Part shown: positions 21,112 to 37,256 of the stretch, piece by piece
How positions within the stretch are numbered: the first letter of the stretch is position 1
How the letters are laid out: each line of letters opens with the position of its first letter
Assembly (NCBI GenBank): GCA_903895695.1
Contig: CAITUY010000085.1
Coordinates: 25,052-89,051, forward strand
Length of the DNA stretch: 64,000 nt
Origin: an uncultured bacterium
GTDB lineage: Bacteria; Verrucomicrobiota; Kiritimatiellia; CAIKKV01; CAITUY01
Direction of reading: 5' to 3'
The notes under the pieces: generated by a model
Database searches by the model: none
Seen by the model: the letters and a program-made list of their open reading frames with translations, nothing else
What the model was told of the DNA's origin: nothing
Program-made: the position numbers and the translations under genes

Positions 21112-21813
21112 ATGCAGCTTGGCGTAAGAGATGTGGCTCGGATTCTGAATGTGTCCGAGAAGTCGATTTACCGATGGATTCAGCACGGGCAGTTGCCCGC
21201 TTACCGGGTCAACGAACAGTATCGGTTCAACCGATCGGAGCTCCTGGAGTGGGCCAATGCGCGCAAGATCAACGTCTCGGCCGAGATCTTCAAGGAGCCG
21301 GACACCACCACCGAGATGATGCCGGACCTGGCCGATGCGATCGAGGCCGGCGGCATTTTCTACCGGCTGGAGGGGCGGGATACCGAGTCGGCGCTCAAGG
21401 CGGTCGTGGGCGTGATGCACCTGCCCCAAGACGTCGACCGCGAGTTCCTCCTGCGCGTGCTGATGGCCCGCGAGTCCATGGCCTCGACCGGCATCGGCGA
21501 TGGCATAGCCATTCCACACGTCCGCAACCCGATCGTGCTGGCCGTCCACCAACCGACCATCTGTCTCTGTTTTCTGGAGCATCCCGTCGAATTCGGCGCG
21601 CTCGACGGCCAGCCCGTGAACACACTGTTCACCCTGATCAGTCCGACCGTTCGCGTGCACCTCTACCTCTTGTCTCGACTGGCGTTTGCCCTCCAGCAGC
21701 CGGGCTTCCGGGACGTGGTGCGGCGGCAGGCGCCGCGGGAGGAGATTGTGCCGGCATTACGGGCTGCTGAAGCGGCCGTGGCGCAGGCCAAGGCGGAGAA
21801 GGCGGCCGGGTGA
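21112..21813 (+). CDS. Transcriptional regulator: excisionase/MerR-like HTH fused to PTS EIIA(Ntr)-type phosphorylatable domain
   Basis: N-term MQLGVRDVARILNVSEKSIYRWIQHGQLPAYRVNEQYRFNRSELLEW (HTH_17). C-term LMARESMASTGIGDGIAIPHVRN matches the PtsN/EIIA-Ntr active-site His box. Stop overlaps GTG start of hyfB-1 (GTGA). Confidence 0.7.
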   Translation: MQLGVRDVARILNVSEKSIYRWIQHGQLPAYRVNEQYRFNRSELLEWANARKINVSAEIFKEPDTTTEMMPDLADAIEAGGIFYRLEGRDTESALKAVVGVMHLPQDVDREFLLRVLMARESMASTGIGDGIAIPHVRNPIVLAVHQPTICLCFLEHPVEFGALDGQPVNTLFTLISPTVRVHLYLLSRLAFALQQPGFRDVVRRQAPREEIVPALRAAEAAVAQAKAEKAAG

Positions 21814-23810
21814 GCGGCCTGCTGGTCAGCCTGATTCTGCTTCTAACCGCGTCGGCCCTGCCGCTGGCGGCGTGGCGGCGCCCGGCCCTGGCCTCGCGGC
21901 TTGGTTCCTGGGGCGGGGCCGCGGCGTGCGGCGTCGGCCTGGCTAGTTCGATCGCGGCGTTCGCCGGCAGCGTGACAGCCTCGCGCGCCTGGCCCTGGGT
22001 GACCCCGGTCGGCGGCGCGTTCAGCCTGGCGTTGGATCCGTTGAGCGCTTTCTTCCTGATCCCCATGTTCCTTGTCTGTGGACTCGGGGCCGTCTACGGC
22101 CGGGCCTATCTGGCCGGCGATGAAGGCCGTCTGGCGCTTGGTCCCTCCTGGTGTTTCTATAATCTCCTGACCGCCAGCATGATCGTCGTGCTTACCGCCT
22201 CCAACGCGTTGCTTTTCCTGGTGAGTTGGGAGGTGATGACGCTGGCGTCGTTTTTCCTGGTGACGTACGACCACGACCGCGCCGAGAGCCGTCTGGCTGG
22301 CCGTCTCTACCTCATTGCCGCGCATATCGGTACGGCATTTCTTGTCGTTTTCGTGCTGCTGGGCCGGCGTTACACGGGCACGCTGGACATGTCGCAATGG
22401 CCGGCGGCATTTGCCGGGATTCCGGCCGCGCGCCTGGGGCTGCTCTTCGTCTGCCTCGTGATCGGCTTTGGCACCAAAGCGGGCTTCATGCCGCTGCACG
22501 TCTGGCTGCCCGAGGCGCACCCGGCGGCTCCGAGCCATGTCTCGGCCGTGATGTCGGGTGTCATGATCAAGACCGGCATTTACGGGCTGCTGCGGTTCGG
22601 CACGATGCTGGGCACGCCGGCGCTCTGGTGGGGCGGCCTGCTCGTGGCCGTCGGCCTGGCGTCGTGCGTGTTCGGGATTCTGTTCGCCCTCGCGCAGCAG
22701 GATATCAAGCGGCAACTCGCGTATTCGAGCGTCGAGAACATGGGTATCGTTGCCTTGGCGCTCGGCGTCGCGTTGGTCGCCCGGGCACTGCAACTGCCGA
22801 CGGTCGCGCTGCTGGCTCTCGCGGCGGCCCTGCTGCACGTGCTGAACCATGCGGTCTTCAAGAGCCTGCTATTTTTTGGCGCCGGGGCGATTTACCGCGC
22901 CACGCACACCCGTAATCTCGATGCGCTGGGCGGGCTGCTTAAGCGCATGCCGCGGCTCGGGCTGGGCCTGATCGTCGGCGCGGCCGCCATCAGCGCCCTG
23001 CCTCCATTCAACGGGTTCGTGGGCGAATTCCTGCTCTACCGCGCTGCAGTGCTCGGCCTGAACTCCGACGCTGACGCCGGGATGATCCTGCTCGCGGCGA
23101 TCGGGGGCCTGGCCCTCACCGGGGGGCTGGCGGCTGCCTGTTTCACGCGTCTGGTCGGGGTGGCCCTGCTCGGGGAACCGCGCACGCCTGAAGCGGCGGC
23201 CGCCGTAGAGCCGGCCGGCGCCTTTCGGTGGCCGGTCACGATCCTGGCGGCGCTGTGCCTGGCGCTCGGAGTGCTGGGGCCATTTCTGGTTGTCCGCCTG
23301 GCGCCGCTCCTCTCCCTGCTGAGCGGCGATCCGCTGGCGAAGGTGTCGGGGTTGCTGGCCCCGGAAACCGGTCCGCTGACGGCCGTGACGCTCATGGCCT
23401 TGCTTGTCCTCGCGCTTGTGGTCATCGTGGCCTGGGCGCGGCACGGCTTGCTCCGCGGCCGCGACGTGCGCGAGGCCGGTACCTGGGATTGCGGCTATGC
23501 CCGCCCCACGGCCCGCATGCAGTACACGGCCACCTCGTTCGCACAGCCCCTCGTGGGGCTTTTCGTCCGGCTCCTGCGTAGCCGGCGCCGCTACGCCATC
23601 GCGCCTGGCCTGTTTCCCGCTTCCGCCTCGCTGAATGCCGAGACCCGCGACGTGGTGCGGGAACGCGTGTTCACGCCGGTGTTCCAGTTCGTCGACCGGT
23701 GGCTGTCGTTTCTGAAATGGCTCCAGTCTGGCCGTGTTCAGCTCTACATTCTCTACATCGTGATCACCCTGCTGGGGCTCTTGTTCTGGACTCTGAGGGG
23801 GGGCGCATGA
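21810..23810 (+). CDS. hyfB: Hyf/Mbh-type antiporter-like membrane subunit (HyfB/NuoL-like), cluster 1
   Basis: 666 aa polytopic protein; HVWLPEAHPAAPSHVSAVMSGVMIKTGIYG signature of the complex-I antiporter-like family; GTG start. Confidence 0.8.
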   Translation: MSGLLVSLILLLTASALPLAAWRRPALASRLGSWGGAAACGVGLASSIAAFAGSVTASRAWPWVTPVGGAFSLALDPLSAFFLIPMFLVCGLGAVYGRAYLAGDEGRLALGPSWCFYNLLTASMIVVLTASNALLFLVSWEVMTLASFFLVTYDHDRAESRLAGRLYLIAAHIGTAFLVVFVLLGRRYTGTLDMSQWPAAFAGIPAARLGLLFVCLVIGFGTKAGFMPLHVWLPEAHPAAPSHVSAVMSGVMIKTGIYGLLRFGTMLGTPALWWGGLLVAVGLASCVFGILFALAQQDIKRQLAYSSVENMGIVALALGVALVARALQLPTVALLALAAALLHVLNHAVFKSLLFFGAGAIYRATHTRNLDALGGLLKRMPRLGLGLIVGAAAISALPPFNGFVGEFLLYRAAVLGLNSDADAGMILLAAIGGLALTGGLAAACFTRLVGVALLGEPRTPEAAAAVEPAGAFRWPVTILAALCLALGVLGPFLVVRLAPLLSLLSGDPLAKVSGLLAPETGPLTAVTLMALLVLALVVIVAWARHGLLRGRDVREAGTWDCGYARPTARMQYTATSFAQPLVGLFVRLLRSRRRYAIAPGLFPASASLNAETRDVVRERVFTPVFQFVDRWLSFLKWLQSGRVQLYILYIVITLLGLLFWTLRGGA

Positions 23811-24718
23811 ACGGGCGCGGCTTGATCCATTACGCGCTGGCGCTGCTGCTGGCCCCGCTGCTGCTGGGCGTGATCAATCGCGTCAAGGCGGCCTTTGCCG
23901 GGCGCCGGGGCCAGCCGGTGCTGCAGCCCTACTACGACCTCGTCAAGCTGCTGCAGAAGGGCGCTGTCTACAGTCGGACCACCACGTGGGTCTTCCGGGC
24001 GGGCCCGGTCGTGACGCTTGCCGCACTGCTCGCGGCGCTGGCCCTGGTGCCGTTCGCGGGACAGGCCGGCCCGTTGTCGTTCCAGGGCGACGTGATCGTC
24101 TGTGTTTATCTGCTCGGACTGGCGCGCTTCTTCACAGTGCTGGCCGCGCTCGATACGGGGTCGGCCTTCGAGGGGATGGGGGCGAGCCGGGAAGTGCAGT
24201 TCTCGGCGCTGGCCGAGCCGGCATTGCTCGTCGGGCTGGTCGTGCTCGGACGGCAGACGAGCACGGCGTCGCTGGGTCCCATGTTTGCGGCTGTGGGGCC
24301 GGCGCTGTGGATGACCGCCGGTACGACGCTGGCCCTGCTTGCGGTGGCCTTCTTCATCGTGCTGTTGTCCGAGAACTCGCGCGTGCCGTTCGACGATCCC
24401 AATACGCATCTCGAGCTGACGATGATCCACGAGGTCATGGTGCTCGACCACGGCGGGCCGGACTTCGGACTGATTTTGTACGGCTCGGCGCTCAAGCTTT
24501 GGATCTTCAGCGCCTTTGTCGCGGGACTGGTCGTGCCGTACCGCTGCGGCAACGGCTGGGTCGACACGGCGGCGGCCGTCGGCGCGCTGCTCCTGACGGC
24601 GTTGGTGGTCGGCACGGTGGAATCGTGCATGGCGCGGTTGCGTCTGCTGCGCGTGCCGCACTTGCTGATCAGCGCGACCGTGGCGGCCGTGCTGGCATTT
24701 TTGTTGATGACGAGGTGA
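23807..24718 (+). CDS. hyfC: HyfC/HycD (NuoH-like) membrane subunit, cluster 1
   Basis: LQPYYDLVKLLQKG...ENSRVPFDDPNTHLELTMIHEVMVLDHGGP; ATGA overlap with hyfB-1. Confidence 0.8.
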   Translation: MNGRGLIHYALALLLAPLLLGVINRVKAAFAGRRGQPVLQPYYDLVKLLQKGAVYSRTTTWVFRAGPVVTLAALLAALALVPFAGQAGPLSFQGDVIVCVYLLGLARFFTVLAALDTGSAFEGMGASREVQFSALAEPALLVGLVVLGRQTSTASLGPMFAAVGPALWMTAGTTLALLAVAFFIVLLSENSRVPFDDPNTHLELTMIHEVMVLDHGGPDFGLILYGSALKLWIFSAFVAGLVVPYRCGNGWVDTAAAVGALLLTALVVGTVESCMARLRLLRVPHLLISATVAAVLAFLLMTR

Positions 24719-24722
24719 ACCG

Positions 24723-25388
24723 GTGACGTCGTGGCTTGATATTGTGATGGTGCTGCTGTTCCTGACCGACCTGGGCCTGCTCGGGTCGAGCCGGCTGGGC
24801 GTCTACGTGCGCCTGGCGGCCGTGCAGGGCGTGCTCGTGGGGGTGCTGCCCCTGCTGGTGCAGCACACGCTGGCGCTTGAAACCGTCGCCGTTGCCGCGG
24901 GCACGATCGCCGTCAAGAGCGTGTTGTTCCCCTGGCTCATGGCGCGGATCATGCGCGGCTTCGATGACCGTCGCGAACGGCAGCCGTACCTGGGTTACAC
25001 GGTGTCGCTCGTGTTGGGCGTGCTGGCGGTGGGCGCGGCCCTGTGGATCAGTCGGCGCCTGCCCGAGTCCGGGGCCGGTGGCCTGGCGGCCCACGGCTTC
25101 CTGATGCCCGCGGCCTTGTTCTCCATATTCACCGGCCTCATCCTGCTGGTCACGCGGCGCAAGGCCGTGACCCAGGTGCTGGGCTATCTTGTGATGGAAA
25201 ACGGCATCTACGTGGCCGGCATGGTACTGGTGCCGGAGTCGACGTTCCTGGTGGAGTTGGGGGTGCTGCTGGACTTGTTCGTGGGCGTGTTCCTCATGGG
25301 GATCATGATTTTCCACATCCAGCGTGAATTCGATCATATCGATACGGACCAACTGGCGGCCTTGAAGGATTGGGGGGGCGAGCCGTGA
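24723..25388 (+). CDS. hyfE: HyfE-like small membrane subunit, cluster 1
   Basis: 221 aa, ~6 TM; LGYLVMENGIYVAG motif shared with paralog at 32680; GTG start. Confidence 0.7.
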   Translation: MTSWLDIVMVLLFLTDLGLLGSSRLGVYVRLAAVQGVLVGVLPLLVQHTLALETVAVAAGTIAVKSVLFPWLMARIMRGFDDRRERQPYLGYTVSLVLGVLAVGAALWISRRLPESGAGGLAAHGFLMPAALFSIFTGLILLVTRRKAVTQVLGYLVMENGIYVAGMVLVPESTFLVELGVLLDLFVGVFLMGIMIFHIQREFDHIDTDQLAALKDWGGEP

Positions 25389-25404
25389 GGCGGCGCCGAC
25401 GCTC

Positions 25405-26880
25405 ATGCTGAGAGAACTGGTCATGTTGCCGGCCGGGGCCGGATTGATGGCGTTCTTCGTGCGTTCGCACGGGTGGCGTCGCGGCCTGCTCGTGGCGGCT
25501 GCCGTCGCGCACCTGGGCCTCACCGTCCGGGCGTGGGTCGCGCCGCCGGCCGTCGGCGGCTTCTGGCTGGGCCTGGACCCGCTCGGGCTCCTGTTCCTGA
25601 CCATCGTCAGCGTGCTGTTCATGGCCTGCGCCGTGTATGCCGTCGGCTACCTGGGCCGCGAGGACCACCAGCAGGAAAAGGCCGATCTTGAGGAGGGCCT
25701 GCTGTTCAGCAACCAGCCCGAGGCCGTGTTTACCGGATGCATGCTGCTGTTCCTGTCCATGATGTCGCTCGTGTGCCTGAGCCGGCATCTGGGCCTGCTC
25801 TGGGTGGCGATCGAGGCCACCACGCTCACGAGTGCGCCGCTGATCTACTACCACCGGCATCACCGCTCGCTCGAGGCGGCTTGGAAGTACATGCTGATTT
25901 GTTCGGTCGGCATCGGGTTGGCCTTGCTCGGCAACTTCTTCCTGGCCGTGGCCTTCACGCCCGCGGGCGGGGTGACGCCGGCGCTTGGACTGGACGGTCT
26001 GCTGACTGCCACGGTGGGGACGCGCGGCGTGTGGCTGAAGGTGGCCTTCGTGTTCATCGTCGTGGGCTACGGCACGAAGATGGGCCTGGCACCCATGCAC
26101 ACGTGGCTGCCCGATGCCCACAGCGAGTCGCCGTCCGTGGTTTCGGCCCTGCTGTCGGGGGCGCTGCTGAATTGCGCCTTCCTGGGCATTTTGCGCGTAT
26201 GGCAGGTGCTCGTGCACACGGGTCAGGCCGATTTCGCCCAACCCATCATGATCGGGTTCGGCCTGGCGTCGATGGCGGTCGCCGCTGTCTTCATCCTGGG
26301 TCAACCCGACTATAAGCGCCTGCTCGCCTATTCCAGCGTGGAGCACATGGGTATCCTGGCGCTCGGTGTCGGCCTCGGCGGCGCCGCCGTGTTCGGTAGC
26401 CTGCTGCACGCCGTGAACCACTCGTTGACGAAGTGCATGCTGTTCCTCACAGCCGGCAACATACTGGCCGTATACCGTACCAAGGAGTGCGGCAAGGCGC
26501 GCGGATTGCTGCGCGTGATGCCGGTCACGGGCGTGCTCTGGATCGCGGGCTTCCTGGCCATCACCGGCACGCCGCCGTTCGGCGTGTTCCTGAGCAAATT
26601 CATCGTGCTGAGCGCCGCGTTCAACAGCGGCCATCCGGTCATCGGCGTCGTCGCGCTGGCCCTGCTGGCCGTGATCTTCGTGGGCCTCTGCGTGATCGTG
26701 CTGCGCATGGGGCAGGGCGAACGCAGCGATGCGGTGCCGGAGGCGGTGCGCGAGCCCCTGTGGTCGATGATTCCGCCCGTGCTGCTCGGACTGGCCGTGC
26801 TTGCGCTGGGCCTGTGGTTGCCGAAGCCGCTGGAGACGGTCCTGCAGGCCGCCGCCAGGAGTTTGGGAGGCGGGCTGTAA
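25405..26880 (+). CDS. hyfF: HyfF (NuoN/M-like) antiporter-like membrane subunit, cluster 1
   Basis: HTWLPDAHSESPSVVSALLSGALLNCAFLG; 491 aa. Confidence 0.8.
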   Translation: MLRELVMLPAGAGLMAFFVRSHGWRRGLLVAAAVAHLGLTVRAWVAPPAVGGFWLGLDPLGLLFLTIVSVLFMACAVYAVGYLGREDHQQEKADLEEGLLFSNQPEAVFTGCMLLFLSMMSLVCLSRHLGLLWVAIEATTLTSAPLIYYHRHHRSLEAAWKYMLICSVGIGLALLGNFFLAVAFTPAGGVTPALGLDGLLTATVGTRGVWLKVAFVFIVVGYGTKMGLAPMHTWLPDAHSESPSVVSALLSGALLNCAFLGILRVWQVLVHTGQADFAQPIMIGFGLASMAVAAVFILGQPDYKRLLAYSSVEHMGILALGVGLGGAAVFGSLLHAVNHSLTKCMLFLTAGNILAVYRTKECGKARGLLRVMPVTGVLWIAGFLAITGTPPFGVFLSKFIVLSAAFNSGHPVIGVVALALLAVIFVGLCVIVLRMGQGERSDAVPEAVREPLWSMIPPVLLGLAVLALGLWLPKPLETVLQAAARSLGGGL

Positions 26881-26882
26881 TT

Positions 26883-28469
26883 ATGAGCACCCCCCGAACT
26901 CTGCGCATGGGCGAAGCCGTTCCCTTGGCCGAGATTCCGCGTCTCGACACCGCTGGATTCCGCGCCCGGGTGACCGACGTGGCCTGGCGTCTGCGCCTTG
27001 TCGCCCTCTTCGGTCGCCCCTCCTACGCCTTGACGGCTTCGGAGGGCAGGCCCTCGTCCTCTTCGGTGGCTGCGGAGGGCCAGTCTGCGGTCGAACCCGG
27101 GGCGCCGGTGACGCTCACTGCGATCTTTGCGGATGACCGCAACGGCCAGATGCAGGCGTTTTCGACGGACGTGGGGGCGTCGTACCCGGCGCTGACGCCC
27201 GACTGCCCCCAGGCCAACGGATTCGAGCGCGAAATCGCCGAGCAGTGGGGTGTGCGGCCTGAAGGGCACCCGTGGCTCAAGCCGCTCCGCTATCACCGTT
27301 CCGCTGTGCCGGGCCGTGACGCGTGGGGCCGCGCCCCAGGGACGGCGATAGAGCCGTCCGTGACCGATTTCTTCCGCGTGGAAGGCGAGGCCGTCCACGA
27401 GGTAGCGGTGGGCCCCGTGCATGCCGGCGTCATTGAGCCCGGCCATTTTCGGTTCCAGTGTTTTGGCGAGACCGTGCTGCACCTCGAGATCGCACTGGGT
27501 TACCAGCATCGCGGCGTGGAGCAGGCGCTGCGCCACGGCGACGCGCGGCGCGTGATGCCTTACATGGAAACGCTGGCCGGCGACACGACCATCGGCCACG
27601 CCACGGCCTATGCCCAGGCCCTCGAGTCCGCCGCCGGCGCCCGGGTGTCCGCGCGGGCCCATGCCCTGCGGGCCGTGGCCTTGGAACTCGAACGCCTGGC
27701 CAACCACACCGGCGATCTCGGCGCGCTGGCGGGCGACGTAGCCTTCCTGCCCACGATGTCCTACTGCGGCCGGATCCGCGGCGATTTTCTGAACATGACG
27801 GCCCTGATCTGCGGCAACCGGTTCGGGCGCGGACTGGTGCGGCCGGGCGGCGTGCGTTGGGATCTCGACCCGGCCCGCAAAGACGAACTGTTGTCGCGCC
27901 TGGCGGCCGCCGAGGCTGACACCAAGAGCGCGGTCGAGCTGATGTTCGACTCGCCGTCGGTGCTGGCCAGGTTCGAGGAAACCGGCACCGTGTCCTTCGA
28001 CGAGTGCGAGTCGCTCGGGCTCGTCGGGCCTGCAGCGCGAGCCTGCGGCGCCGAACGCGACGTGCGACAGGATTTCCCCGGCGGGATGTACCGGTTTCAG
28101 CAGATCCCGGTGGGAACGTGGAGCACCGGCGACGTATTTGGCCGCGCCTTCGTGCGCTGGCTGGAAATCCAGCGTTCCATCGCGTTCATTCGCGAGGTGC
28201 TGCAGACGCTGCCGGAGGGCGACGTGCTGGCGCCCTGCGGCCCGCTGGCGCCGGACAGCCTCGTGGTCTCCCTGGTCGAGGGGTGGCGGGGCGAGGTCGC
28301 CCACGTGCTGATCACCGGGGCGCAAGGACAGCGCGAGTTCTACAAGATTGTGGACCCTTCGTTCCATAACTGGATGGGCCTGGCGATCGCGATGCGAGAC
28401 CAGGCGATCTCCGATTTCCCGATCTGCAACAAGAGCTTCAACCTTTCGTACTGCGGGCACGATTTGTGA
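26883..28469 (+). CDS. Group-4 hydrogenase large-subunit homolog (fused NuoC-NuoD/HycE-like) lacking both NiFe-binding CxxC motifs (Ehr-like), cluster 1
   Basis: NuoC-like N-domain plus NuoD/HycE-like domain (VGPVHAGVIEPGHFRF). At the position of the paralog's N-terminal ERMCGVCSLSHG this protein has METLAGDTTIGHA. C-terminus CNKSFNLSYCGHDL replaces NKSFELCYSCTDR. Confidence 0.75.
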   Translation: MSTPRTLRMGEAVPLAEIPRLDTAGFRARVTDVAWRLRLVALFGRPSYALTASEGRPSSSSVAAEGQSAVEPGAPVTLTAIFADDRNGQMQAFSTDVGASYPALTPDCPQANGFEREIAEQWGVRPEGHPWLKPLRYHRSAVPGRDAWGRAPGTAIEPSVTDFFRVEGEAVHEVAVGPVHAGVIEPGHFRFQCFGETVLHLEIALGYQHRGVEQALRHGDARRVMPYMETLAGDTTIGHATAYAQALESAAGARVSARAHALRAVALELERLANHTGDLGALAGDVAFLPTMSYCGRIRGDFLNMTALICGNRFGRGLVRPGGVRWDLDPARKDELLSRLAAAEADTKSAVELMFDSPSVLARFEETGTVSFDECESLGLVGPAARACGAERDVRQDFPGGMYRFQQIPVGTWSTGDVFGRAFVRWLEIQRSIAFIREVLQTLPEGDVLAPCGPLAPDSLVVSLVEGWRGEVAHVLITGAQGQREFYKIVDPSFHNWMGLAIAMRDQAISDFPICNKSFNLSYCGHDL

Positions 28470-28475
28470 AGAGGG

Positions 28476-28640
28476 TCATTAGAGGCTATCCGAAAACTTG
28501 TCTGCCTCTTCTGGGAGCGGCGCGGCTTCCCGCGCCGGCCTGCCCTGAGCGCCATCGAAGGGCCGGAGCCGGAAGCGGCTCCGCTCCATGTGGCAAAGGG
28601 GTTTTCGGACAGGCTCTTATTGGACATTGGAGATTGGGCA
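28476..28640. repeat. Copy B of the palindromic intergenic repeat family, between the large- and small-subunit genes of cluster 1
   Basis: AGAGGCTATCCGAAAACTTGTCTGCCTCTTCTGGGAGCGGCGCGGCTTCCCGCGCCGGCCTGCCCTGAGCGCCATCGAAGGGCCGGAGCCGGAAGCGGCTCCGCTCCATGTGGCAAAGGGGTTTTCGGACAGGCTCTTATTGG; nested hairpins CGGCGCG/CGCGCCG and GGAGCCG/CGGCTCC. Confidence 0.8.
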
Positions 28641-28659
28641 TTAGTCATTGGGGCCAGGT

Positions 28660-29598: not shown

Positions 29599-29664
29599 TG
29601 GTTTGTTTGACTTTGCTTGGTTGTGTCTGTCGGGTGTTGAGTTGGCTGCGGTTTGGCAGGACTG

Positions 29665-31728
29665 ATGACGACGATGGCGACAAGCGTCCGCGCAAGCGGC
29701 GATGGAGATAAACTGACCGCGCATCCCCTGGTCGACAAGGGTGCGGGACCGGTTGTGCGGTGTGCGGTCTGGTTGGGCCACTGGCTTACGCTGGCCGGTG
29801 CGTTGGCCGGCGCCGCGGTGGCCCTGCGCGTCCTGGGCGGTTCCGCGCCCGTTCACGTGGCGCTTCCGAAACTCTTCCCATTCGCTGAGATGTCTCTCCA
29901 CGTGGACGGGCTTTCCGCGTTCTTTCTCCTGGTCGTTTGCGTGGTCGCCGTCGCGGCCTCGGTCTATGGCCCTTCCTACCTCGGCGCGCACGCCAAGGCG
30001 CCGCTGGTCCAAACCCTGGCCTTCATGGTGTTTGTCCCCTGCATGGCCCTGGTATGCTGCGCCGGCGACGCGCTCACGTTTCTGCTGGCCTGGGAGGGCA
30101 TGACGCTCGCGAGCTACGTGCTCGTCGTGAGCGATACGGCGGACGCGGAAAAGACGCGCGCGGGACTGCTTTACCTGATCATGGCGCATGCGGGCACCGC
30201 GGCGCTGCTCGCCGTGTTCCTCACGCTCACCGTGCACGCGCAGGCGTTCGACTTCCCCGCGTTGCGCGACGCGGCGGGCCGGTTGGACGGCTCCACGCGC
30301 ACGGTGCTGTTCATGCTGGCGCTGCTCGGTTTCGGGGCCAAGGCCGGCGTCGTGCCGCTGCACATCTGGCTCCCGGCGGCGCACCCGGCCGCGCCCAGCC
30401 ACGTGTCGGCCCTGATGTCGGGTGCGATGCTCAAGGTCGCCATCTACGGCATCTTCCGTTTCGGGTTTGCGCTGCTGGCCTCGACGACCGGCCCGCTGCC
30501 CCCGTCGTGGGGCTGGACCGTCCTATTCCTGGGCACCGTTTCCGCCGTGTTCGGTGTCTTGCTAGCCCTCCAGCAACATGACCTGAAGCGTCTACTCGCG
30601 TATCACAGCGTGGAGAACATCGGCATCATTCTTATCGGCGCGGGGCTGGCTATGTTGCTGGGCGGCAGACCCGGCACGGAGCGGCTGGCCACGCTGGCCT
30701 TGGCGGCCTCGCTCCTGCACACCTTGAATCACGCGGCGTTCAAGGGCTTGTTGTTCCTGGGCGCCGGCAGCGTCGTCAGCCGCACGTTCACCCGCAACAT
30801 GGAGGAGTTCGGCGGCCTGGCCCGCCGCATGCCCTGGACGGCCTGGCTGTTCCTGCTCGGGTCGGTCGCCATATCGGCGCTGCCGCCGCTAAACGGGTTT
30901 GTCAGCGAGTGGATGACGTTCCAGGCCCTGGTACTGGGCGGCGCCAGAATGGGCGGCGCGTCGGGCCTGCTCGCCGGAATTGCGGCCTCGATGCTCGCGC
31001 TGACCGGCGGCCTGGCGGCCGCCTGCTTTGCGAAGGCCTTCGGCGTTACCTTCCTCGGCCGGCCGCGCTCGGCGCACGCCGAGCACGCGACTGAATCGCC
31101 GGCGCCGATGATCGCCGGCATGCTCCTGCTGGCGGGCGCCTGCGTGGCACTCGGCCTGGTGCCGGGGTATGCCATGCGCCTGCTGGACCGGCCCACCGCT
31201 GAAGTTATGGGCGGCCTGAGCGCCAGCGCGGTCGTCGCTGCCCGGGGGCCCCTCGTCCTTTCCGCCGGCGGCGGGCCGGCGGGCCTGGAGGCGACCTCGA
31301 TCTCGGTGACCCTGGCCGCATCGGTGTTCCTGTTGATCGCCGTGGCCGTGTGGTTTGTGCGGAGTTGGCCACGGAAGGCGCCGCGCCGGCTTGCGCCGAC
31401 CTGGACGTGCGGGATGACCCCCACCAGCCGCTTCGACTATACGGCGACTGCGTTCGCCAAGCCGTTGCGGCTCATCTTTGCCGCCGTTTACCGGCCGCAC
31501 CGGGCGATCGCGCGGGAGCCTGGTCCTTCGCCCTACGTGCCCCGGCGGTTGGTCTACTCGGGCGAGGTTGTCGATCTCACGGAGACGGTCTTCTACGCCC
31601 GGTTCAAACACGCGGTGACCGCCGTGTCCCAAGCCATCCGCGCCCGGAGCACCGGGCGGATCCACGGGTACATCGCCTACGTGCTGGCCACGCTGGTGAT
31701 TGTGCTACTTCTCTTCGGGAAAGGGTGA
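29665..31728 (+). CDS. hyfB: HyfB/NuoL-like antiporter-like subunit, cluster 2
   Basis: Paralog of 21810-23810 (HIWLPAAHPAAPSHVSALMSGAMLKVAIYG); first ATG at 29665. Confidence 0.8.
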   Translation: MTTMATSVRASGDGDKLTAHPLVDKGAGPVVRCAVWLGHWLTLAGALAGAAVALRVLGGSAPVHVALPKLFPFAEMSLHVDGLSAFFLLVVCVVAVAASVYGPSYLGAHAKAPLVQTLAFMVFVPCMALVCCAGDALTFLLAWEGMTLASYVLVVSDTADAEKTRAGLLYLIMAHAGTAALLAVFLTLTVHAQAFDFPALRDAAGRLDGSTRTVLFMLALLGFGAKAGVVPLHIWLPAAHPAAPSHVSALMSGAMLKVAIYGIFRFGFALLASTTGPLPPSWGWTVLFLGTVSAVFGVLLALQQHDLKRLLAYHSVENIGIILIGAGLAMLLGGRPGTERLATLALAASLLHTLNHAAFKGLLFLGAGSVVSRTFTRNMEEFGGLARRMPWTAWLFLLGSVAISALPPLNGFVSEWMTFQALVLGGARMGGASGLLAGIAASMLALTGGLAAACFAKAFGVTFLGRPRSAHAEHATESPAPMIAGMLLLAGACVALGLVPGYAMRLLDRPTAEVMGGLSASAVVAARGPLVLSAGGGPAGLEATSISVTLAASVFLLIAVAVWFVRSWPRKAPRRLAPTWTCGMTPTSRFDYTATAFAKPLRLIFAAVYRPHRAIAREPGPSPYVPRRLVYSGEVVDLTETVFYARFKHAVTAVSQAIRARSTGRIHGYIAYVLATLVIVLLLFGKG

Positions 31729-31732
31729 GTCC

Positions 31733-32683
31733 ATGGCGAGTATCGAACACATCGGGGCCGCCTGCGCGCAGACCGGGCTTCTGGTTGTGCTCGGACCCCT
31801 TGTGACCGGGTTCATCCAGAAGATCAAGGCGCGCCTTCAGTGCCGGCAGGGGGCGAGCGTCTGGCAGCCGTACCAGGACCTCGCGAAGTTGCTGCGCAAG
31901 GGAACCGTGCAAAGCGACACGGCCAGCCCGTTCTTCCAGGTCGTGCCGGTGCTCGTGCTGGCCGCCACCGTGACGGCCGCCGCCATGCTGCCCGTACTGC
32001 GCTCCTCGGTGGGCTCCTCAGCCCTGCCGTTCGGCGACGCCATTCTGCTCGTGGCCCTGCTGGCCCTGGCCCGTTTTCTCCTGGCGATCGGGGCGCTGGA
32101 TGCCGGGGGCGCGTTCGGCGGGATGGGGGCCTCCCGCGAAATGACCGTCGGCCTCTTGGTCGAGCCGGCCTTGATGCTCGTCGTTTTTTCGGTGGCGATC
32201 GTGGGCGGGACCACCGAGTTGGGCGACCTGGCCACGCGCCGGCATACGCTCGCTGCCATGGCGTGGCAGGCGCCCGACCTGCTCGCATTCTTCGCGATGC
32301 TGGTCCTGATACCGGCGGAAACCGGGCGGATCCCCGTGGATAACCCGGACACCCACCTCGAGCTCACGATGCTGCACGAAGGCATGCTCCTCGAGCACTC
32401 GGGGCCTGGCCTGGCCTGCATCGCCCTGGCCACGCACACCAAGCAGATCGTCATCCTCAGCCTGACCGTGGCGCTCTTCTGCCCGTACGGCATGGCACAG
32501 GACATCACGCCGGAGGCCTTGGGTCTGGCCCTGGCGGCCTTCGTCGCCAAACTTTTTGTGTTCGTGGTGTTTCTGGGCGTGATCGAGTCTTCCTACGCCA
32601 AGATGCGTTTCTTCAGGGTTCCCCAATTCCTGGCGTTGGGGTTGCTGTGCGCGTTCCTGTCCCTGGCGTTGAGGATCCTATGA
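31733..32683 (+). CDS. hyfC: HyfC/HycD (NuoH-like) subunit, cluster 2
   Basis: WQPYQDLAKLLRKG...ETGRIPVDNPDTHLELTMLHEGMLLEHSGP. Confidence 0.8.
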   Translation: MASIEHIGAACAQTGLLVVLGPLVTGFIQKIKARLQCRQGASVWQPYQDLAKLLRKGTVQSDTASPFFQVVPVLVLAATVTAAAMLPVLRSSVGSSALPFGDAILLVALLALARFLLAIGALDAGGAFGGMGASREMTVGLLVEPALMLVVFSVAIVGGTTELGDLATRRHTLAAMAWQAPDLLAFFAMLVLIPAETGRIPVDNPDTHLELTMLHEGMLLEHSGPGLACIALATHTKQIVILSLTVALFCPYGMAQDITPEALGLALAAFVAKLFVFVVFLGVIESSYAKMRFFRVPQFLALGLLCAFLSLALRIL

Positions 32684-33336
32684 GCATCGAGCTGGCCACC
32701 CGCCTGATCAATGACCTGGGAGCGCTGCTCCTGGTCACCATGATGCTTATCCTGGCGTCCGGGCAGTTGTTCCGCGCTATCTTCGCCGTCGCCGCGCAGG
32801 CCGTGTTCCTGGGAATCGCCGGCGTGATCCTGGGGATCGTCACCGGGAATCGCGACCTGTGGATTATTGCGGGCATCACGATCGTCGTGAAAGCCGTCCT
32901 GCTGCCCTGGCTGTTGATCCGGGTCGTCAAGCGGGTCCAGATCCAGCGCGAGATCGAGCCGGCCATCCCGATTTCCATCACGCTCATACTCGGCGCGGCC
33001 ATCGTGGTGCTCGCCTTCCACCTCAGCGCCACGCTGGGCCCGGTCCGGCAGGCGATCACCGGCAACGCGCTGCCCGTGGGCGTGGCGCTGACGTTGCTCG
33101 GCGTCCTGGTGATGGCCTCCCGGAAGAAGGCGCTGACCCAAATGGTCGGCCTGTTCGCCTCCGAAAACGGCATCTTCTTCACCGCCATGGCGATCAGCCA
33201 GGGCATGCCGTTCATCATTGAGATCGGTGTCATCCTCGACGTTGTCCTCGGTGCGCTCGTGATGGGAATTATGATCCTGCGGGTCCGTTCCGACGTGGAT
33301 ACGGATATCGCCGATCTTGAAAGTCTGAAGGGCTGA
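32680..33336 (+). CDS. hyfE: HyfE-like small membrane subunit, cluster 2
   Basis: Paralog of 24723-25388; ATGA overlap with hyfC-2. Confidence 0.7.
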   Translation: MSIELATRLINDLGALLLVTMMLILASGQLFRAIFAVAAQAVFLGIAGVILGIVTGNRDLWIIAGITIVVKAVLLPWLLIRVVKRVQIQREIEPAIPISITLILGAAIVVLAFHLSATLGPVRQAITGNALPVGVALTLLGVLVMASRKKALTQMVGLFASENGIFFTAMAISQGMPFIIEIGVILDVVLGALVMGIMILRVRSDVDTDIADLESLKG

Positions 33337-34808
33337 TGACCTCGACGCTTCCATGGGTTCTGCCGCTGGTGCCCGTCATCTCCGGGCTGTGTATGCTGCT
33401 CTTCCGCGACCGGCGGGTGCTCGCGGCGCTCGACATGGCCAGTTCGGGGGTAATCCTGGCGCTCGGGCTGGTGCTGGCGGGTGAGGTCGCCGCCGCCGGT
33501 CCTATCAGTGCTCTGGGCGCCATGCGTGCGGATGAAGTCACGGTGATCTTCCTGCTGCTGATCGGGTTTCTCGCCCTGGCGGTATCGATCTGCACGGTCG
33601 GCTGGATGCGGCAGTCCCTGGCGCGCTCGGAAATGAAGGCGGATCGGCTGCACTATTACTACGCGCTGGTGCAGGGCTTCATCGCCACGATGCTGGTGAC
33701 GGTACTGTCGGACAATCTCGGGATCCTGTGGATCGCCATGGAAGGCACCACCATCACGTCCGCGGTCCTGGTGGGCTTCCAGGGCAACAAGCACAGCCTT
33801 GAAGCGGCGTGGAAGTATATCATTGTGACCACGATCGGGATTTCGTTCGGCCTTTTCGGTACGGTGCTCATCTACGGGGCGGCCGCGCACGCGCAGGGCG
33901 GCGTTTTTGCCGGGGCCATGAACTGGTCGAGCATCTCGGCCATTTCAGGCAAGCTCGATCCCGGCATCGTGCGCATGGGGTTCATCTTTGTGCTCGTGGG
34001 CTACGGGACGAAGGCCGGTCTGGCCCCCGTTCATATGTGGCTGCCGGATGCGCACAGCCAGGCGCCCACGCCGGTCTCGGCGCTTCTGTCCGGCGCGCTC
34101 ATCAAGTGTGCGCTGTTTGGCATCATCCGGTTCCACACGATTGCGCGCGGCGCCTGCGGCCCGGAGTTCAGCGGGAACCTGCTGCTCTGGTTCGGCGTCA
34201 TCTCGGTGGTGGTGGCGACGCCGTTCATCATCGTCCAGCATGACTTGAAACGGCTGCTTGGCTATCACAGCGTCGAGCACGTCGGGATCGTCGTGCTGGG
34301 CCTGGGCTTCGGCGGCCCCCTCGGGACCTACGGGGCCCTGCTGCACACGATCAACCACGGGGTGACCAAGGCGTTGGCGTTCCTGATCGCGGGCGATGCG
34401 ATTCATCGCTACGACAGCCGCGACATGCGCGTGATCAAGGGCTTCCTGGGCGTCGCGCCGTGGGCGGGCACGCTGCTGTTCATGGGGGCGTTCTCCCTCG
34501 CCGGCACGCCGCCGTTCTCCATCTTCATCAGTGAACTGCTCATCGTTCGTGCGGGGCTCGCCTCCAGCCACTACTGGGCCGTGGGCATCTTTCTCGTCAT
34601 GGTGGTGGTCATCTTTGCGGGCCTGATCCACCACGTCGGGCAGATGGTCCTGGGCATCGCGGCAGAACCCGTGAGCCGCGAGAAGGAGTCCCGCCTGGGG
34701 CTGCTGGGGCTGCTTTTGCTGGCGGCGGTGATCGTGCTGCTGGGAGTGTGCATGCCCGCCGGGTTCGATCGGCTGCTCGTGCGGGCCACGGAGATCATCC
34801 ATGGATGA
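33336..34808 (+). CDS. hyfF: HyfF (NuoN/M-like) subunit, cluster 2
   Basis: HMWLPDAHSQAPTPVSALLSGALIKCALFG; ATGA overlap with hyfE-2. Confidence 0.8.
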   Translation: MTSTLPWVLPLVPVISGLCMLLFRDRRVLAALDMASSGVILALGLVLAGEVAAAGPISALGAMRADEVTVIFLLLIGFLALAVSICTVGWMRQSLARSEMKADRLHYYYALVQGFIATMLVTVLSDNLGILWIAMEGTTITSAVLVGFQGNKHSLEAAWKYIIVTTIGISFGLFGTVLIYGAAAHAQGGVFAGAMNWSSISAISGKLDPGIVRMGFIFVLVGYGTKAGLAPVHMWLPDAHSQAPTPVSALLSGALIKCALFGIIRFHTIARGACGPEFSGNLLLWFGVISVVVATPFIIVQHDLKRLLGYHSVEHVGIVVLGLGFGGPLGTYGALLHTINHGVTKALAFLIAGDAIHRYDSRDMRVIKGFLGVAPWAGTLLFMGAFSLAGTPPFSIFISELLIVRAGLASSHYWAVGIFLVMVVVIFAGLIHHVGQMVLGIAAEPVSREKESRLGLLGLLLLAAVIVLLGVCMPAGFDRLLVRATEIIHG

Positions 34809-36426
34809 TTCAACCATGGAATTGGAATCGGTTCTGAAGATGCGGCTGGGCAGTCTCGTCGCCTTCGGGCGCGGTCCGCGTCCATGGGATTTTACCCTGC
34901 GGCTGCGGCGCGCGGAGGACGTCGTCGCGGCCGTCGCGGCGTTCCAGGAGACTGGGCTTTGCCTGGCCACCCTCGTCGCAACCGACGAAGAGGCGACCGA
35001 TGAACACGATTTGAAGGTCCGCTATATCTTCGAACCGGGAATCGGTTTCCCGTTTCCGCTCCCGGACCTGTTCGTCACGCTCACGGCCTCGCTCGATCCC
35101 CGGTGCCCGGTCCTGCCGTCGATCGCGGCGCAGATCCCGGCGGCCAACTGGCACGAGCGGGAGGCCCGGGATTTGTTCGGGATTGTCTTCACCGGCCATC
35201 CGGACCCGAGGCCGTTGGTCGTTCACGACGGCTGGCCGCAGGGCCTGTACCCGTTCCGAAAGGGATTTGATGCCGGACAGCGCCCGGCCGTGGAGCCGGC
35301 CGAGGAATTTCCGCATCTGGTGGTCGAGGGCGAGGGCGTGTTCGAGGTGCCCGTGGGTCCCATCCATGCGGGCATCATCGAGCCGGGGCATTTCCGGTTC
35401 AGCACGATCGGTGAGAAGGTGCTGTTCCTGGACCCCCGCCTTTTCTACACCCATCGGGGGTTGGAGAAGCGCGTCGAGGGCCTGACGGCGCTCGACGGCT
35501 TCATCGTGGCCGAGCGCATGTGCGGCGTGTGTTCGCTCTCGCACGGGCTCGGGTTTTGCGAAGCGGCCGAGCAGATCGCGGGAATCGACATACCGGGGCG
35601 CGCGCGGACGATCCGGACCGTGGCCCTCGAACTGGAACGGCTCTACAACCACGTGGGGGACCTCGGCAACATCAGCGCGGGCGCGAGCTACCACTACGGC
35701 AATTCGGCCGGCTCGCGCATGAAGGAAGCGTTGCAGCAGGTCAACGAGCAACTGGCAGGCAACCGGTTCCTGCGCGGGTTGCTGACGCCCGGCGGCGTCA
35801 GTTTCGACCTGACGGCCGAAGTGGCCCAGTCAATTGGGCGCGTCATCGATGCCACGGAAGAAGCCCTCCGGGACCTGACGGAGCGGATCGAGAATAACCC
35901 GACCGTTCTCGACCGGCTGGATACGACGGGGATCCTGTCGCGTGCGGATGCCGTCAACTTGGGCGTGACGGGCATCGCGGCCCGTGCCAGCGGCCTCGAC
36001 CGCGATGCCCGGAGGGATCACCCCCATGGCGCGTATGCCGACGACGACGGCCCGCGCGTCAAAGTGATGACCGTGGATGAGGGCGACGTTCACGCCCGCC
36101 TGGTGCTGCGCGCGGCCGAGGCCGGCGAGTCCATGCGGTTGATTCGCGCCTTACTGGCGGACGTTCCCACCGGGCTGATCCGGGTCGATTTTCCCGGGGC
36201 ACTGCCCCCGTGGCGGGTTGGGCTCTCGGCCATCGAATCGCCGCGCGGGGCTTGCCTGCACTGGCTTCGCTCCGACGCGGCGGGGCGGATCGATCGTTAC
36301 CACCTGCGCGCGGCGAGCTATGCCAACTGGCCGGCTGTGGCGATCGCGGCCGAGACCGCGATCATTCCCGACTTTCCGCTGGTGAACAAGAGTTTCGAGC
36401 TTTGCTATTCCTGCACCGATCGATGA
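34801..36426 (+). CDS. hyfG: [NiFe] hydrogenase large subunit (HyfG/HycE/EchE-like, fused NuoC-NuoD) with intact Ni-binding motifs, no C-terminal extension
   Basis: N-terminal RMCGVCSLSH (L1 CxxC) and C-terminal ELCYSCTDR-stop (L5 CxxC at the very C-terminus, as in Ech/Coo-type enzymes). Confidence 0.8.
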   Translation: MDDSTMELESVLKMRLGSLVAFGRGPRPWDFTLRLRRAEDVVAAVAAFQETGLCLATLVATDEEATDEHDLKVRYIFEPGIGFPFPLPDLFVTLTASLDPRCPVLPSIAAQIPAANWHEREARDLFGIVFTGHPDPRPLVVHDGWPQGLYPFRKGFDAGQRPAVEPAEEFPHLVVEGEGVFEVPVGPIHAGIIEPGHFRFSTIGEKVLFLDPRLFYTHRGLEKRVEGLTALDGFIVAERMCGVCSLSHGLGFCEAAEQIAGIDIPGRARTIRTVALELERLYNHVGDLGNISAGASYHYGNSAGSRMKEALQQVNEQLAGNRFLRGLLTPGGVSFDLTAEVAQSIGRVIDATEEALRDLTERIENNPTVLDRLDTTGILSRADAVNLGVTGIAARASGLDRDARRDHPHGAYADDDGPRVKVMTVDEGDVHARLVLRAAEAGESMRLIRALLADVPTGLIRVDFPGALPPWRVGLSAIESPRGACLHWLRSDAAGRIDRYHLRAASYANWPAVAIAAETAIIPDFPLVNKSFELCYSCTDR

Positions 36427-36446
36427 GAACACCGTAGGAACCCGGC

Positions 36447-37256
36447 ATGATAAGGGCCATTCTGAGGAACTTGAAGACGGGCGTGGTGACGCAACGCGCC
36501 CCGCTGCCGCCCCCGGCCCGTTTCCGGGGCACGCCGAGCGTCAACCCCGGCGTTCCCTTCGATTCCCTGCCCGGGCCCTCGGTCTGCCCGAGCGGCGCCA
36601 TCACCGGCGGCGCGGGCACGGATGGATACGCGATCGACATTGCCCGCTGCGTCTTCTGCGGACGCTGCGCCCTGGCGTCGCCCGCCAATGCCATTGAGCT
36701 GGGCCGCGAAGTCGAACTGTCGGCGCGCCGTCGCGATCGGCTCGTGGTCCGTGTCGAGCGCGGCGCCGACGGACGGACGGTGATCCCGGCCGCCCCCGCC
36801 GCCCTCGAACCCGTGGCCAACCGAATCCGGCGCCTGCTGGGCCGCTCGCTGCACCTGCGCCACGTGGATTCCGGTTCCTGCAATGCCTGCGACTGGGAGC
36901 TCACCGCACTGTTGAACCCTGTCTACGACATACGGCGGCTTGGTATCGACTTCGTGGCCTCGCCCCGGCATGCCGATGGGATCGTGGTCACCGGTCCGGT
37001 GACCCGCAACCTGGAGACAGCCGTGCGGCGGACCCTGGAAGCCGTTCCCGAGCCGCGCCTGGTCATCGCGATCGGCGCCTGCGCCTCATCGGGCGGCATC
37101 GTCGGGCGCAGCTATGCCAGCGCCGGCGGCGTGGATGCTATTCTGCCGGTGGACGTCTACGTGCCCGGTTGCCCGCCGCGTCCCGATGCGATCATTTTCG
37201 GGATCCTTCTCGCCATTGGCCGGCTCGGCGAGCGCCAACCGGCCGGCCCGCGTTAA
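36447..37256 (+). CDS. Ferredoxin-like::hydrogenase small subunit (HycG/NuoB-like) fusion, cluster 2; Fd domain reduced to one predicted [4Fe-4S] site
   Basis: Motif 1 reduced to a single Cys-Pro (SVCPSG); motif 2 CVFCGRCALASP (Cys4 changed to Ser). Small subunit HLRHVDSGSCNACDWE...IGACASSGG...VPGCPP. Confidence 0.75.
   Translation: MIRAILRNLKTGVVTQRAPLPPPARFRGTPSVNPGVPFDSLPGPSVCPSGAITGGAGTDGYAIDIARCVFCGRCALASPANAIELGREVELSARRRDRLVVRVERGADGRTVIPAAPAALEPVANRIRRLLGRSLHLRHVDSGSCNACDWELTALLNPVYDIRRLGIDFVASPRHADGIVVTGPVTRNLETAVRRTLEAVPEPRLVIAIGACASSGGIVGRSYASAGGVDAILPVDVYVPGCPPRPDAIIFGILLAIGRLGERQPAGPR

Follow-up and report, generated by a model that had tools for sequence, protein, structure and literature searches.

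What is the relation between two gene clusters that share every gene and stand head to tail in one genome, when only one of them has kept the ligands of a Ni-Fe site? This question is raised by a stretch of DNA of 64,000 nucleotides from an uncultured bacterium of the Kiritimatiellia (Verrucomicrobiota; assembly GCA_903895695.1, contig CAITUY010000085.1, positions 25,052 to 89,051), here called the window. Between 21.0 and 37.3 kb the window contains 13 tightly spaced genes on the plus strand, one gene of 233 amino acids followed by two modules of six genes each, module A (21810-29433) and module B (about 29674-37256). An initial annotation, made from the sequence alone, described them as tandem duplicates under shared regulation, one a [NiFe]-hydrogenase and the other a Cys-less paralogue resembling complexes of the energy-converting hydrogenase related (Ehr) type. 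That interpretation proved half right: the modules are paralogous, module B has the features of a group-4 hydrogenase and module A those of a Cys-less Ehr, but neither the tandem duplication nor the shared regulation is upheld. The best explanation, which we regard as probable, is that A and B are members of sister families that diverged anciently and now lie side by side. Both parts are of known kinds, an Ehr complex and a group-4 hydrogenase that is probably of group 4f, and it is their adjacency that is uncommon.

The genes of the locus, all on the plus strand, and its spacers are as follows.

21112 to 21813: regulator-like gene with an HTH_17 (excisionase-type) domain and a PTS EIIA-2 (PtsN/FruA-like) domain (Pfam, 7.6e-16 and 1.4e-22), here called the HTH-EIIA gene
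21810 to 23810: A1 (EhrA), NuoL/HyfB-like antiporter-like subunit, 666 amino acids (Proton_antipo_M, 1.2e-51)
23804 to 24718: A2 (EhrB), NuoH/HyfC-like membrane subunit, 304 amino acids (Pfam NADHdh, 4.5e-32; 36% identical to B2)
24723 to 25388: A3 (EhrC), HyfE-like membrane subunit, 221 amino acids ('hydrogenase 4 membrane subunit', 2.8e-23, under the cut-off; weak Oxidored_q2)
25405 to 26880: A4 (EhrD), NuoN/HyfF-like antiporter-like subunit, 491 amino acids (Proton_antipo_M, 2.1e-51)
26883 to 28469: A5 (EhrL), NuoC::NuoD/HycE-like large subunit, 528 amino acids (alignment with HycE 7z0s_E and Nqo4, motif tables, Ehr clade)
28470 to 28659: spacer between A5 and A6 (EhrL-EhrS), 190 bp, with a long imperfect hairpin (-90.3 kcal/mol, z = -2.87)
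28660 to 29433: A6 (EhrS), fusion of NuoI/HycF-like and NuoB-like domains, 257 amino acids (Pfam Fer4_7 and Oxidored_q6)
29434 to 29673: spacer between the modules, 231-321 bp depending on the true start of B1, AT-richer than the genes
29674 to 31728: B1, NuoL/HyfB-like antiporter-like subunit (open reading frame from 29653, ATGs at 29665 and 29674; Proton_antipo_M, 5.7e-52)
31733 to 32683: B2, NuoH/HyfC-like membrane subunit, 316 amino acids (Pfam NADHdh, 9.3e-41)
32680 to 33336: B3, HyfE-like membrane subunit, 218 amino acids ('hydrogenase 4 membrane subunit', 3.9e-21, under the cut-off; 32% identical to A3)
33336 to 34808: B4, NuoN/HyfF-like antiporter-like subunit, 490 amino acids (Proton_antipo_M, 4.7e-56; ion-path Glu, Lys and Glu conserved)
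34801 to 36426: B5, NuoC::[NiFe]-hydrogenase large subunit, 541 amino acids (Pfam Complex1_30kDa, Complex1_49kDa and NiFeSe_Hases)
36447 to 37256: B6, fusion of NuoI-like and NuoB-like domains, 269 amino acids (Pfam Oxidored_q6, 1.7e-30; NCBIfam)

Two adjacent, co-oriented modules of identical gene order had been recognized from the start, and both were found as described. The common order is NuoL-like, NuoH-like, HyfE-like, NuoN-like, NuoC::NuoD-like large subunit and NuoI::NuoB-like small subunit, and the Pfam domains follow it alike in A and B: Proton_antipo_M, NADHdh, the HyfE-like protein, Proton_antipo_M, Complex1_30kDa plus Complex1_49kDa, and Fer4 plus Oxidored_q6. The NCBIfam model 'hydrogenase 4 membrane subunit' matches both HyfE-like proteins under its cut-off, and no NCBIfam large-subunit model attains its cut-off with A5 or B5. 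Neighbouring genes of a module lie end to end or overlap by 1-8 nt; only A5 and A6 are parted, by the 190-bp gap.

The paralogy of the two modules is evident. All six pairs of corresponding subunits are homologous, with identities of 32-42% and blastp E-values from 2e-27 to 6e-103, and the peptides that had been quoted in support of a common origin, HVWLPEAHPAAPSHVSAV in A1 and HIWLPAAHPAAPSHVSAL in B1, are present. Each module also has a family of its own. A5 has thousands of relatives in the databases, the best of them 78 and 77% identical, and at 61-67% there are named relatives from Kiritimatiellae, Verrucomicrobiia, Methylomirabilota, Binatia, Hydrogenedentes and Deltaproteobacteria. When one genome per species was scanned, 80 Ehr loci emerged, 49-65% identical to A5, which include Geobacter, Geomonas, Pelobacter, Planctomycetota and Verrucomicrobiota. 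The family of B5 is likewise large, with 58-78% identity and with Lentisphaerae, Isosphaerales and Anaeromyxobacter among its members. In a neighbour-joining tree of large subunits rooted on Escherichia coli NuoCD, HycE and HyfG branch first, and the remainder consists of a Cys-less Ehr clade and a Cys-bearing clade. A5 (WIN_A5) lies deep in Ehr with its 77-78% relatives (L083 and L084), and B5 (WIN_B5) groups with Lentisphaerae-type sequences (L086, L088 and L090) in the Cys-bearing clade. A C-terminal NKSF(N/E)L is common to the Ehr and B clades; group 4a has IGSLDP at this point.

The neighbourhoods of the closest relatives tell the same story. Those of the 78 and 77% relatives of A5 consist of an HTH-EIIA gene and the six genes, with no module B; a nitroreductase and a rubrerythrin gene lie downstream in one and a SIS-domain gene in the other, and the upstream genes differ from those of the window. 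The relatives of B5 at 78, 74 and 71% are stand-alone six-gene clusters in unrelated neighbourhoods. The low identity between A and B, their placement in separate clades and their stand-alone relatives indicate that the split long predates this genome and, therefore, that the adjacency is secondary. Most likely it came about by rearrangement or acquisition and not by duplication in place.

Ehr, the 'energy-converting (Ech) hydrogenase related' complex, was first named in Geobacter. It occurs in many anaerobic or facultative bacteria, including Geobacter, Planctomycetota, Verrucomicrobiota, Nitrospira and relatives of Cyanobacteria, and has been discussed as an intermediate between hydrogenases and complex I. 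We know of no substrate, structure or phenotype for it, and no biochemical or structural papers on Ehr were found in the literature searched. The complex of G. sulfurreducens, GSU0739-0745, was reportedly described by Coppi in 2005 and by Marreiros et al. in 2013. Ehr has been characterized as a set of NuoL-, NuoH-, HyfE- and NuoN-like membrane subunits with EhrL and EhrS, without CxxC motifs, close to group 4f and of unknown function (PMC6349859, PMC10284858). Module A contains the whole Ehr subunit set (NuoL-, NuoH-, HyfE-, NuoN-, NuoCD- and NuoB-like) in one operon, in the same order as in 80 related loci. Together with the HTH-EIIA gene upstream it is, on these characters, a complete Ehr cassette, so that the resemblance to Ehr proposed initially agrees with the subunit set, the Cys-less large subunit and the placement in the Ehr clade.

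Loci from Geobacter sp., Geobacteraceae and Geomonas limicola (L051, L055 and L065) belong to the A5 clade, with 51-60% identity and the A5 motifs, GSU0739-0745 itself being outside the comparison. As with module A, Geobacter Ehr comprises EhrA-D, EhrL and EhrS, and the Geobacteraceae and Geomonas loci of this clade have AGDT and LSYCG. In contrast, Geobacter-type loci possess two EhrA genes and a large subunit with ...CGFDL at its end; the window has a single EhrA and ...CGHDL, and its cassette directly precedes a true hydrogenase module. In G. sulfurreducens the Ehr subunits (GSU0739-45) are more abundant on formate (PMC7894505).

In module A, A1 scores 585 bits with the NCBIfam model 'hydrogenase 4 subunit B', under the cut-off of 667, and retains the equivalents of NuoL E144, K229 and K399. 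A4 matches 'Hydrogenase 4 subunit F' at 2.3e-111, also under the cut-off, and retains the Glu of transmembrane helix 5 and the Lys residues of helices 7 and 12. A6 matches the NCBIfam models for the formate hydrogenlyase iron-sulfur subunit (residues 1-104) and NuoB.

When the large subunit A5 is aligned with E. coli HycE (PDB 7Z0S, chain E), its Ala232, Thr235, Ser522 and Gly525 fall on C241, C244, C531 and C534, within the segments ETLAGDTTIGH and NLSYCGHDL. None of the four aligned positions has a cysteine, as had been read from the sequence initially. Close by, C524 sits one residue ahead of the fourth ligand position, but it is A or S in 7 of the 83 family members. A metal site formed by C524, H526 and D527 was considered as a universal feature and rejected, given these replacements at 524 and the F, Y, N or V found at 526 in many members. 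Throughout the tblastn set, made up of the 80 genome-scan loci and the nearest relatives, [A/G/S]-G-D-[T/S] takes the place of the first CxxC, and L-S-Y-[C/A/S]-G that of the second. As judged from this conservation, AGD(T/S) and LSY(C/A/S)G are family signatures under selection and not local decay. The quinone-site Tyr87 of Nqo4 aligns with A5 Gly233 (phmmer), so the tyrosine of the complex-I quinone site is absent as well.

The earlier statement that A5 cannot bind a NiFe centre is correct for the canonical site. Beyond that site it has to be qualified, since Ehr large subunits carry conserved cysteines of their own and the related Cys-less Hyq of Azorhizobium caulinodans reportedly shows hydrogenase activity in vivo. 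That Ehr is 'not a hydrogenase' is therefore a presumption.

The cysteines in question are C193, C295, C310, C515 and C524 (A5 numbering), which are 92-99% conserved in the Ehr large subunits (n = 83) and occur all together in 71 of them. Neither the B clade nor HycE, HyfG and NuoCD conserve them at the aligned positions; in two B-clade sequences a cysteine occupies the position of C310, and a second Cys-less (Hyq-like) type shares only the equivalent of C515, in one of two sequences. Four early-branching members (L044, L071, L073 and L081) have both C295 and C310 replaced, and three of the four also lack C524; the closest relative of the window has Asp at position 295. The five cysteines are candidate ligands of a rebuilt site. 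An AlphaFold2 model of A5, built from a 21-sequence alignment, has a mean predicted local distance difference test score of 65.6, and the score drops below 50 in the vicinity of the former active site (residues 157-207 and 494-528).

Two features set this particular cassette apart from its relatives. A5 is about 20 residues longer than its homologues (528 vs about 507 amino acids) owing to a low-complexity insertion rich in Ser, Ala and Gly at residues of about 48-75, in the NuoC-like domain. The hairpin-bearing spacer between A5 and A6 represents inserted sequence: in the closest relatives the two genes are 27-37 bp apart. The hairpin has no second copy within the window, and Rfam gave no match in 20000-38500, the hairpin included. 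It may be a small palindromic mobile element, or an element of transcript processing or stability.

Module B, by contrast with A, has its Ni-Fe cysteines intact. B5 aligns with HycE at an E-value of 2.1e-74, and its C241, C244, C535 and C538, in RMCGVCSLSH and CYSCTDR, fall on HycE C241, C244, C531 and C534, which bears out the original observation that both Ni-ligating pairs are kept. These four cysteines are invariant (100%) among 52 members of the B family. B1 scores 652 bits with 'Hydrogenase 4 subunit B', against the cut-off of 667, and has the ion-path residues conserved; the N-termini of its homologues place its start near 29755. With every sequence hallmark present, module B appears to be a self-contained, six-subunit, membrane-bound group-4 [NiFe]-hydrogenase.

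Formate coupling is the usual proposal for group 4f. This group has been described as an uncharacterized membrane-bound unit of six genes, ehfA-F (bioRxiv 10.1101/2025.08.29.672306), and reported as the group closest to Ehr (PMC10284858). Module B has the same six-gene layout, complete L1 and L2 cysteines and a clade that is sister to Ehr, and these characters, together with the literature, make HydDB group 4f (Ehf) its most likely assignment. In contrast to the formate proposal, no formate dehydrogenase lies near B. About 60 open reading frames scanned across the 64-kb window gave no Hyp, HycI, HyfA/HycB, formate dehydrogenase or CO dehydrogenase domains. The absence of hyp, HycI and hyfA/hyfD genes from the window had been remarked before and is confirmed. 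B5 terminates at ...CTDR, without a C-terminal extension.

The best match among solved structures, for both large subunits, is the E. coli Hyc/Hyf system (group 4a, PDB 7Z0S), and counterparts of HyfB, C, E, F, G, H and I are recognizable in the window. The window differs in having no HycB/HyfA, HyfD, FdhF, HycI or C-terminal extension, and in the fusion of HyfH and HyfI into one small subunit. On these grounds, and because HycE and HyfG fall outside the clade of A and B, a formate hydrogenlyase of the Hyc/Hyf type (4a) was rejected for module B.

The two modules also differ in their wiring, and the difference is family-wide in each. EhrS has 12 cysteines that are 90-97% conserved (n = 73), eight in the NuoI-like and four in the NuoB-like domain, enough for two NuoI-type [4Fe-4S] clusters and a NuoB-type proximal cluster. 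B6 has eight that are 100% conserved (n = 38), four in each domain. In its NuoI-like domain those kept are, in the first motif, the CP cysteine and, in the second, the CxxCxxC. Ferredoxin folds with two [4Fe-4S] clusters follow a ligand-swapped pattern, and the four cysteines of B6 would accordingly hold one cluster, probably the one adjoining the proximal cluster. The equivalents of NuoL E144, K229 and K399 are kept in all four antiporter-like subunits (A1, A4, B1 and B4). Because the Fe-S ligands and ion-translocation residues are kept in both modules, both look functional, and Ehr in particular looks like a working redox-driven ion-translocating machine.

How the machines might operate can be proposed, although here we infer the donor, the acceptor, the direction, the regulation and any cooperation between A and B. 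In module B, electrons would pass from a soluble low-potential carrier to the single NuoI-type cluster, then to the NuoB-type proximal cluster and finally to the Ni-Fe site, where protons would be reduced or, in reverse, H2 oxidized. This redox reaction would be coupled to ion translocation through the NuoH-, HyfE-, NuoL- and NuoN-like subunits. Module A would be the same machine with a three-cluster wire and a rebuilt Ni-Fe pocket, in which AGD(T/S) and LSY(C)G replace the two CxxC pairs. Electrons would be exchanged with some acceptor, in one direction or the other, while ions are moved. A DNA-binding EIIA(Ntr)-like protein, sensing the phosphorylation state of the phosphotransferase system (PTS), would control the expression of module A.

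This last proposal comes from the HTH-EIIA gene, in which NCBIfam recognizes PtsN/fruA-type EIIA and excisionase domains. Its reading frame is open from 21034, but homologues agree on a start at M27 (21112), with a promoter-like site just ahead of it at 21050-21078, and its stop overlaps the start of ehrA by 4 nt. Homologues are present in 41 of the 56 Ehr loci with enough upstream sequence (38 on the same strand, 7 between structural genes). In several loci of Verrucomicrobiota/Opitutae the gene lies between two EhrA genes. Among 34 Ehr-linked homologues, conservation is at least 90% for a GDGIAIPH motif, the one in which EIIA domains have their phosphorylatable histidine. No partner enzyme was found beside the Ehr cassettes: all-against-all clustering of 184 flanking open reading frames gave only generic two-component regulators. 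The absence of any conserved neighbour besides HTH-EIIA argues against a dedicated partner encoded in cis and would favour a general soluble electron carrier. Neither the HTH-EIIA gene nor the Ehr-specific cysteines were found described in the Ehr papers searched.

The same gene bears on the claim that the two modules share their regulation. Module A has its own upstream regulator gene and promoter-like site, and an AT-richer spacer of 230-320 bp, long enough for a separate promoter, divides it from B. Shared regulation of A and B is nevertheless possible as far as the sequence goes; a promoter and terminator scan found no terminator-like hairpin in the spacer between A6 and B1.

Other hydrogenase relatives without the canonical Ni-Fe ligands differ from Ehr in several ways. 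Hyq, the 'endo-hydrogenase' encoded by hyqRBCEFGI in A. caulinodans, is said to have been described by Ng in 2009 and Sprecher in 2012. The Hyq system resembles the Ehr cassette in having a six-subunit core (B, C, E, F, G and I), a regulator and a Cys-less large subunit, a likeness drawn from its description. Unlike that of Ehr, the small subunit of Hyq has no NuoI-like domain, and Hyq has been proposed to react with quinone. With its plain NuoB small subunit, the Hyq layout also resembles the second Cys-less modules beside Ehr in L055 and on a Variovorax plasmid. The Mbx/MBS complex of Pyrococcus furiosus (PDB 6U8Y) and complex I are, like Ehr, derived from hydrogenases with the Ni-Fe site gone. 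The chemistry of MBS takes place at or near the proximal cluster, and that of complex I in the quinone cavity. A5 matches Nqo4 (E 2.7e-31) and MbsL (E 1.9e-10), and is far closer to HycE than to MbsL. Ehr differs from MBS in having no Mrp-type extra subunits, and from complex I in lacking the NADH-oxidizing module and Tyr87 of Nqo4, which is Gly in A5. In HyqG both CxxC motifs are absent, and three cysteines near the C-terminus are conserved in its family (PMC3357923), which is comparable to the five of the Ehr large subunits.

Several points weigh against the account given so far, in which an Ehr complex and a 4f hydrogenase of ancient divergence became neighbours secondarily. The tree is a simple neighbour-joining tree without support values, and module B was filed under 4f tentatively, from its six-gene layout, its clade position and the literature. 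With no hyp genes in the window, the maturation of B would depend on genes elsewhere. The Cys-less Hyq has been reported to have hydrogenase activity in vivo, with H2 both consumed and evolved (PMC3357923), which makes it unsafe to exclude H2 chemistry for Ehr. Finally, the pairing recurs. In one metagenome contig of the B family (L128) an HTH-EIIA gene and an Ehr module come after the B small subunit, and in another (L120) B is followed by a convergent Ehr large subunit. Other tandem pairs of six-gene modules are found in L049, L055, L114 and the Variovorax plasmid. Such recurrence means that adjacency may be selected and not accidental.

How rare the pairing is can be stated for the loci surveyed. 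None of the 80 species-level Ehr loci has a Cys-complete module within 10 kb, 60 of them extending at least 3 kb past the last module gene. A second module is present in only two, L049 and L055, and its large subunit is Cys-less in both. The B-family set comprises 49 metagenome loci, mostly on short contigs, and L128 and L120 belong to it; in L114, L115 and L133 the B-family module is followed by a module of a third kind. The Ehr copies of L128 and L120 are only 51-54% identical to A5, which suggests independent pairing events. An Ehr beside a Cys-complete sibling hydrogenase is thus rare, not unique, and has arisen more than once and in different orders.

Of the alternatives, a functional partnership survives best, although we think it unlikely. 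Here A and B would be a co-expressed pair whose adjacency is kept by selection. One version would have the hydrogenase exchange H2 with a pool of low-potential carriers and Ehr re-oxidize or reduce this pool against a second acceptor, the two sharing an ion gradient. The common strand, the spacer free of terminator-like hairpins, the apparently independent adjacencies of L128 and L120 and the recurrence of module pairs elsewhere are all consistent with it. Against this stand the 80 species-level loci without a Cys-bearing neighbour, the solitary closest relatives of both A and B, and a spacer that could hold a separate promoter. More doubtful still is a specific form of this idea: an Ehr with a rebuilt Cys-based site, and so more than a hydrogenase stripped of its metal, would be expressed together with its sibling [NiFe]-hydrogenase, controlled by a sensor of the EIIA(Ntr) type, and the two would form a two-machine circuit linked by H2 or ferredoxin and an ion gradient. 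Pairs of six-gene modules now and then come together, perhaps for a function, perhaps through shared mobility.

Several other loci met in these surveys deserve mention in their own right. In L049, from a Verrucomicrobia metagenome-assembled genome (JACRJZ010000060.1, 122-12082), genes of an Ehr operon (E and N) are followed by a complete second module and then by the Ehr large and small subunits. The large subunit of this second six-gene module is Cys-less (SGDSS / SYSGTDR), and the interleaving reflects either an Ehr operon that received an insertion or a faulty assembly. Plasmid 3 of Variovorax sp. PBL-E5 (L172, 525073-542953), from a cultured aerobe, has two co-oriented six-gene modules 3.4 kb apart. 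Both of their large subunits are Cys-less, and their small subunits are a fused NuoI::NuoB in one case and a plain, Hyq-like NuoB in the other. Plasmid pRZP3 of Rhodococcus sp. ZPP (L173, 50211-57499) carries a cluster of six genes in which the small-subunit gene comes first and the large subunit is Cys-less (RISGDTTIGH ... SYAGNDL); the plasmid is mobilizable, and the cluster adjoins an IS110 transposase and integrases. Two metagenome contigs, L145 and L146, have Ser for the first cysteine of each pair (RISGxC ... SYACxDR), leaving two of the four Ni-Fe ligands, and fall inside an otherwise Cys-complete clade. They may be intermediates, or forms similar to Mbx/MBS.

That A and B are neighbours through an assembly error, with two contigs of a metagenome-assembled genome falsely joined, is very unlikely. 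It is true that the source organism is uncultured with relatives known only at the level of metagenome-assembled genomes, and that exact-sequence look-ups of B5 and B1 returned no record on other contigs. However, the modules share no long repeats such as might lead an assembler astray. With about 58-70% GC the window is GC-rich, and its GC is even across the junction. Moreover, an independent contig of 3183 bp from another sample contains A5, A6 and then a plus-strand gene that starts 241 nt after A6, exactly the distance of the B1 ATG at 29674. This contig, for which gene positions and not DNA were compared, supports the junction indirectly. The initial annotation had allowed for a duplicated or collapsed contig; this is ruled out by the DNA, in which A and B resemble each other only over short stretches with 66-80% identity.

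A tandem duplication of a hydrogenase operon in place, with later loss of the Ni-Fe ligands from the upstream copy, was the reading first proposed and now seems highly improbable. It would account for the identical gene order and orientation and the clear homology of the six pairs. The identity of 32-42% between A and B has nevertheless to be set against counterparts in other phyla at 49-78% for A and 58-78% for B. The modules are nested deeply in different clades, their nearest relatives are single modules, and the residues that replace the ligands are signatures of a whole family and not local decay. That module A is a decaying pseudo-operon without function is scarcely credible: the loss of all four Ni-Fe ligands, the 190-bp insertion between A5 and A6 and the low-complexity insertion in the N-terminal domain of A5 could be taken for decay, but the six reading frames are intact with tight or overlapping junctions, identities of 49-78% hold across phyla with many invariant columns, the Fe-S ligands and ion-path residues are conserved, and Ehr proteins of Geobacter have been detected by proteomics (PMC7894505).

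The rest of the window adds some context. The neighbours of both modules are housekeeping and carbohydrate genes. The MutS encoded in the window has relatives of 75-87% identity and, at 65-68%, named ones from Kiritimatiellia, Lentisphaerae and Verrucomicrobiota, which places the window among uncultured bacteria of the PVC group. Directly downstream of module B, two adjacent GH38 alpha-mannosidase paralogues of 1027 and 1013 amino acids occupy 37880-44006 on the minus strand. Lower-GC islands with defence and mobile-element genes lie at 44000-47300 and 57600-63250; they contain an AbiEii fragment, RhuM, a caspase-like peptidase, an AbiEii/AbiEi toxin-antitoxin pair and a phage-type integrase.

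Overall, the locus presents Ehr as a self-contained unit of a regulator and six genes, without a conserved partner enzyme alongside. It suggests a sensor of the EIIA(Ntr) type as the regulator, and it flags a set of largely Ehr-specific cysteines as candidate ligands of a rebuilt site. Natural pairs of an Ehr and a hydrogenase of the sister clade are places where co-expression could be examined. In genome annotation, such pairs should be taken neither for recent duplicates nor for 'two hydrogenases'.

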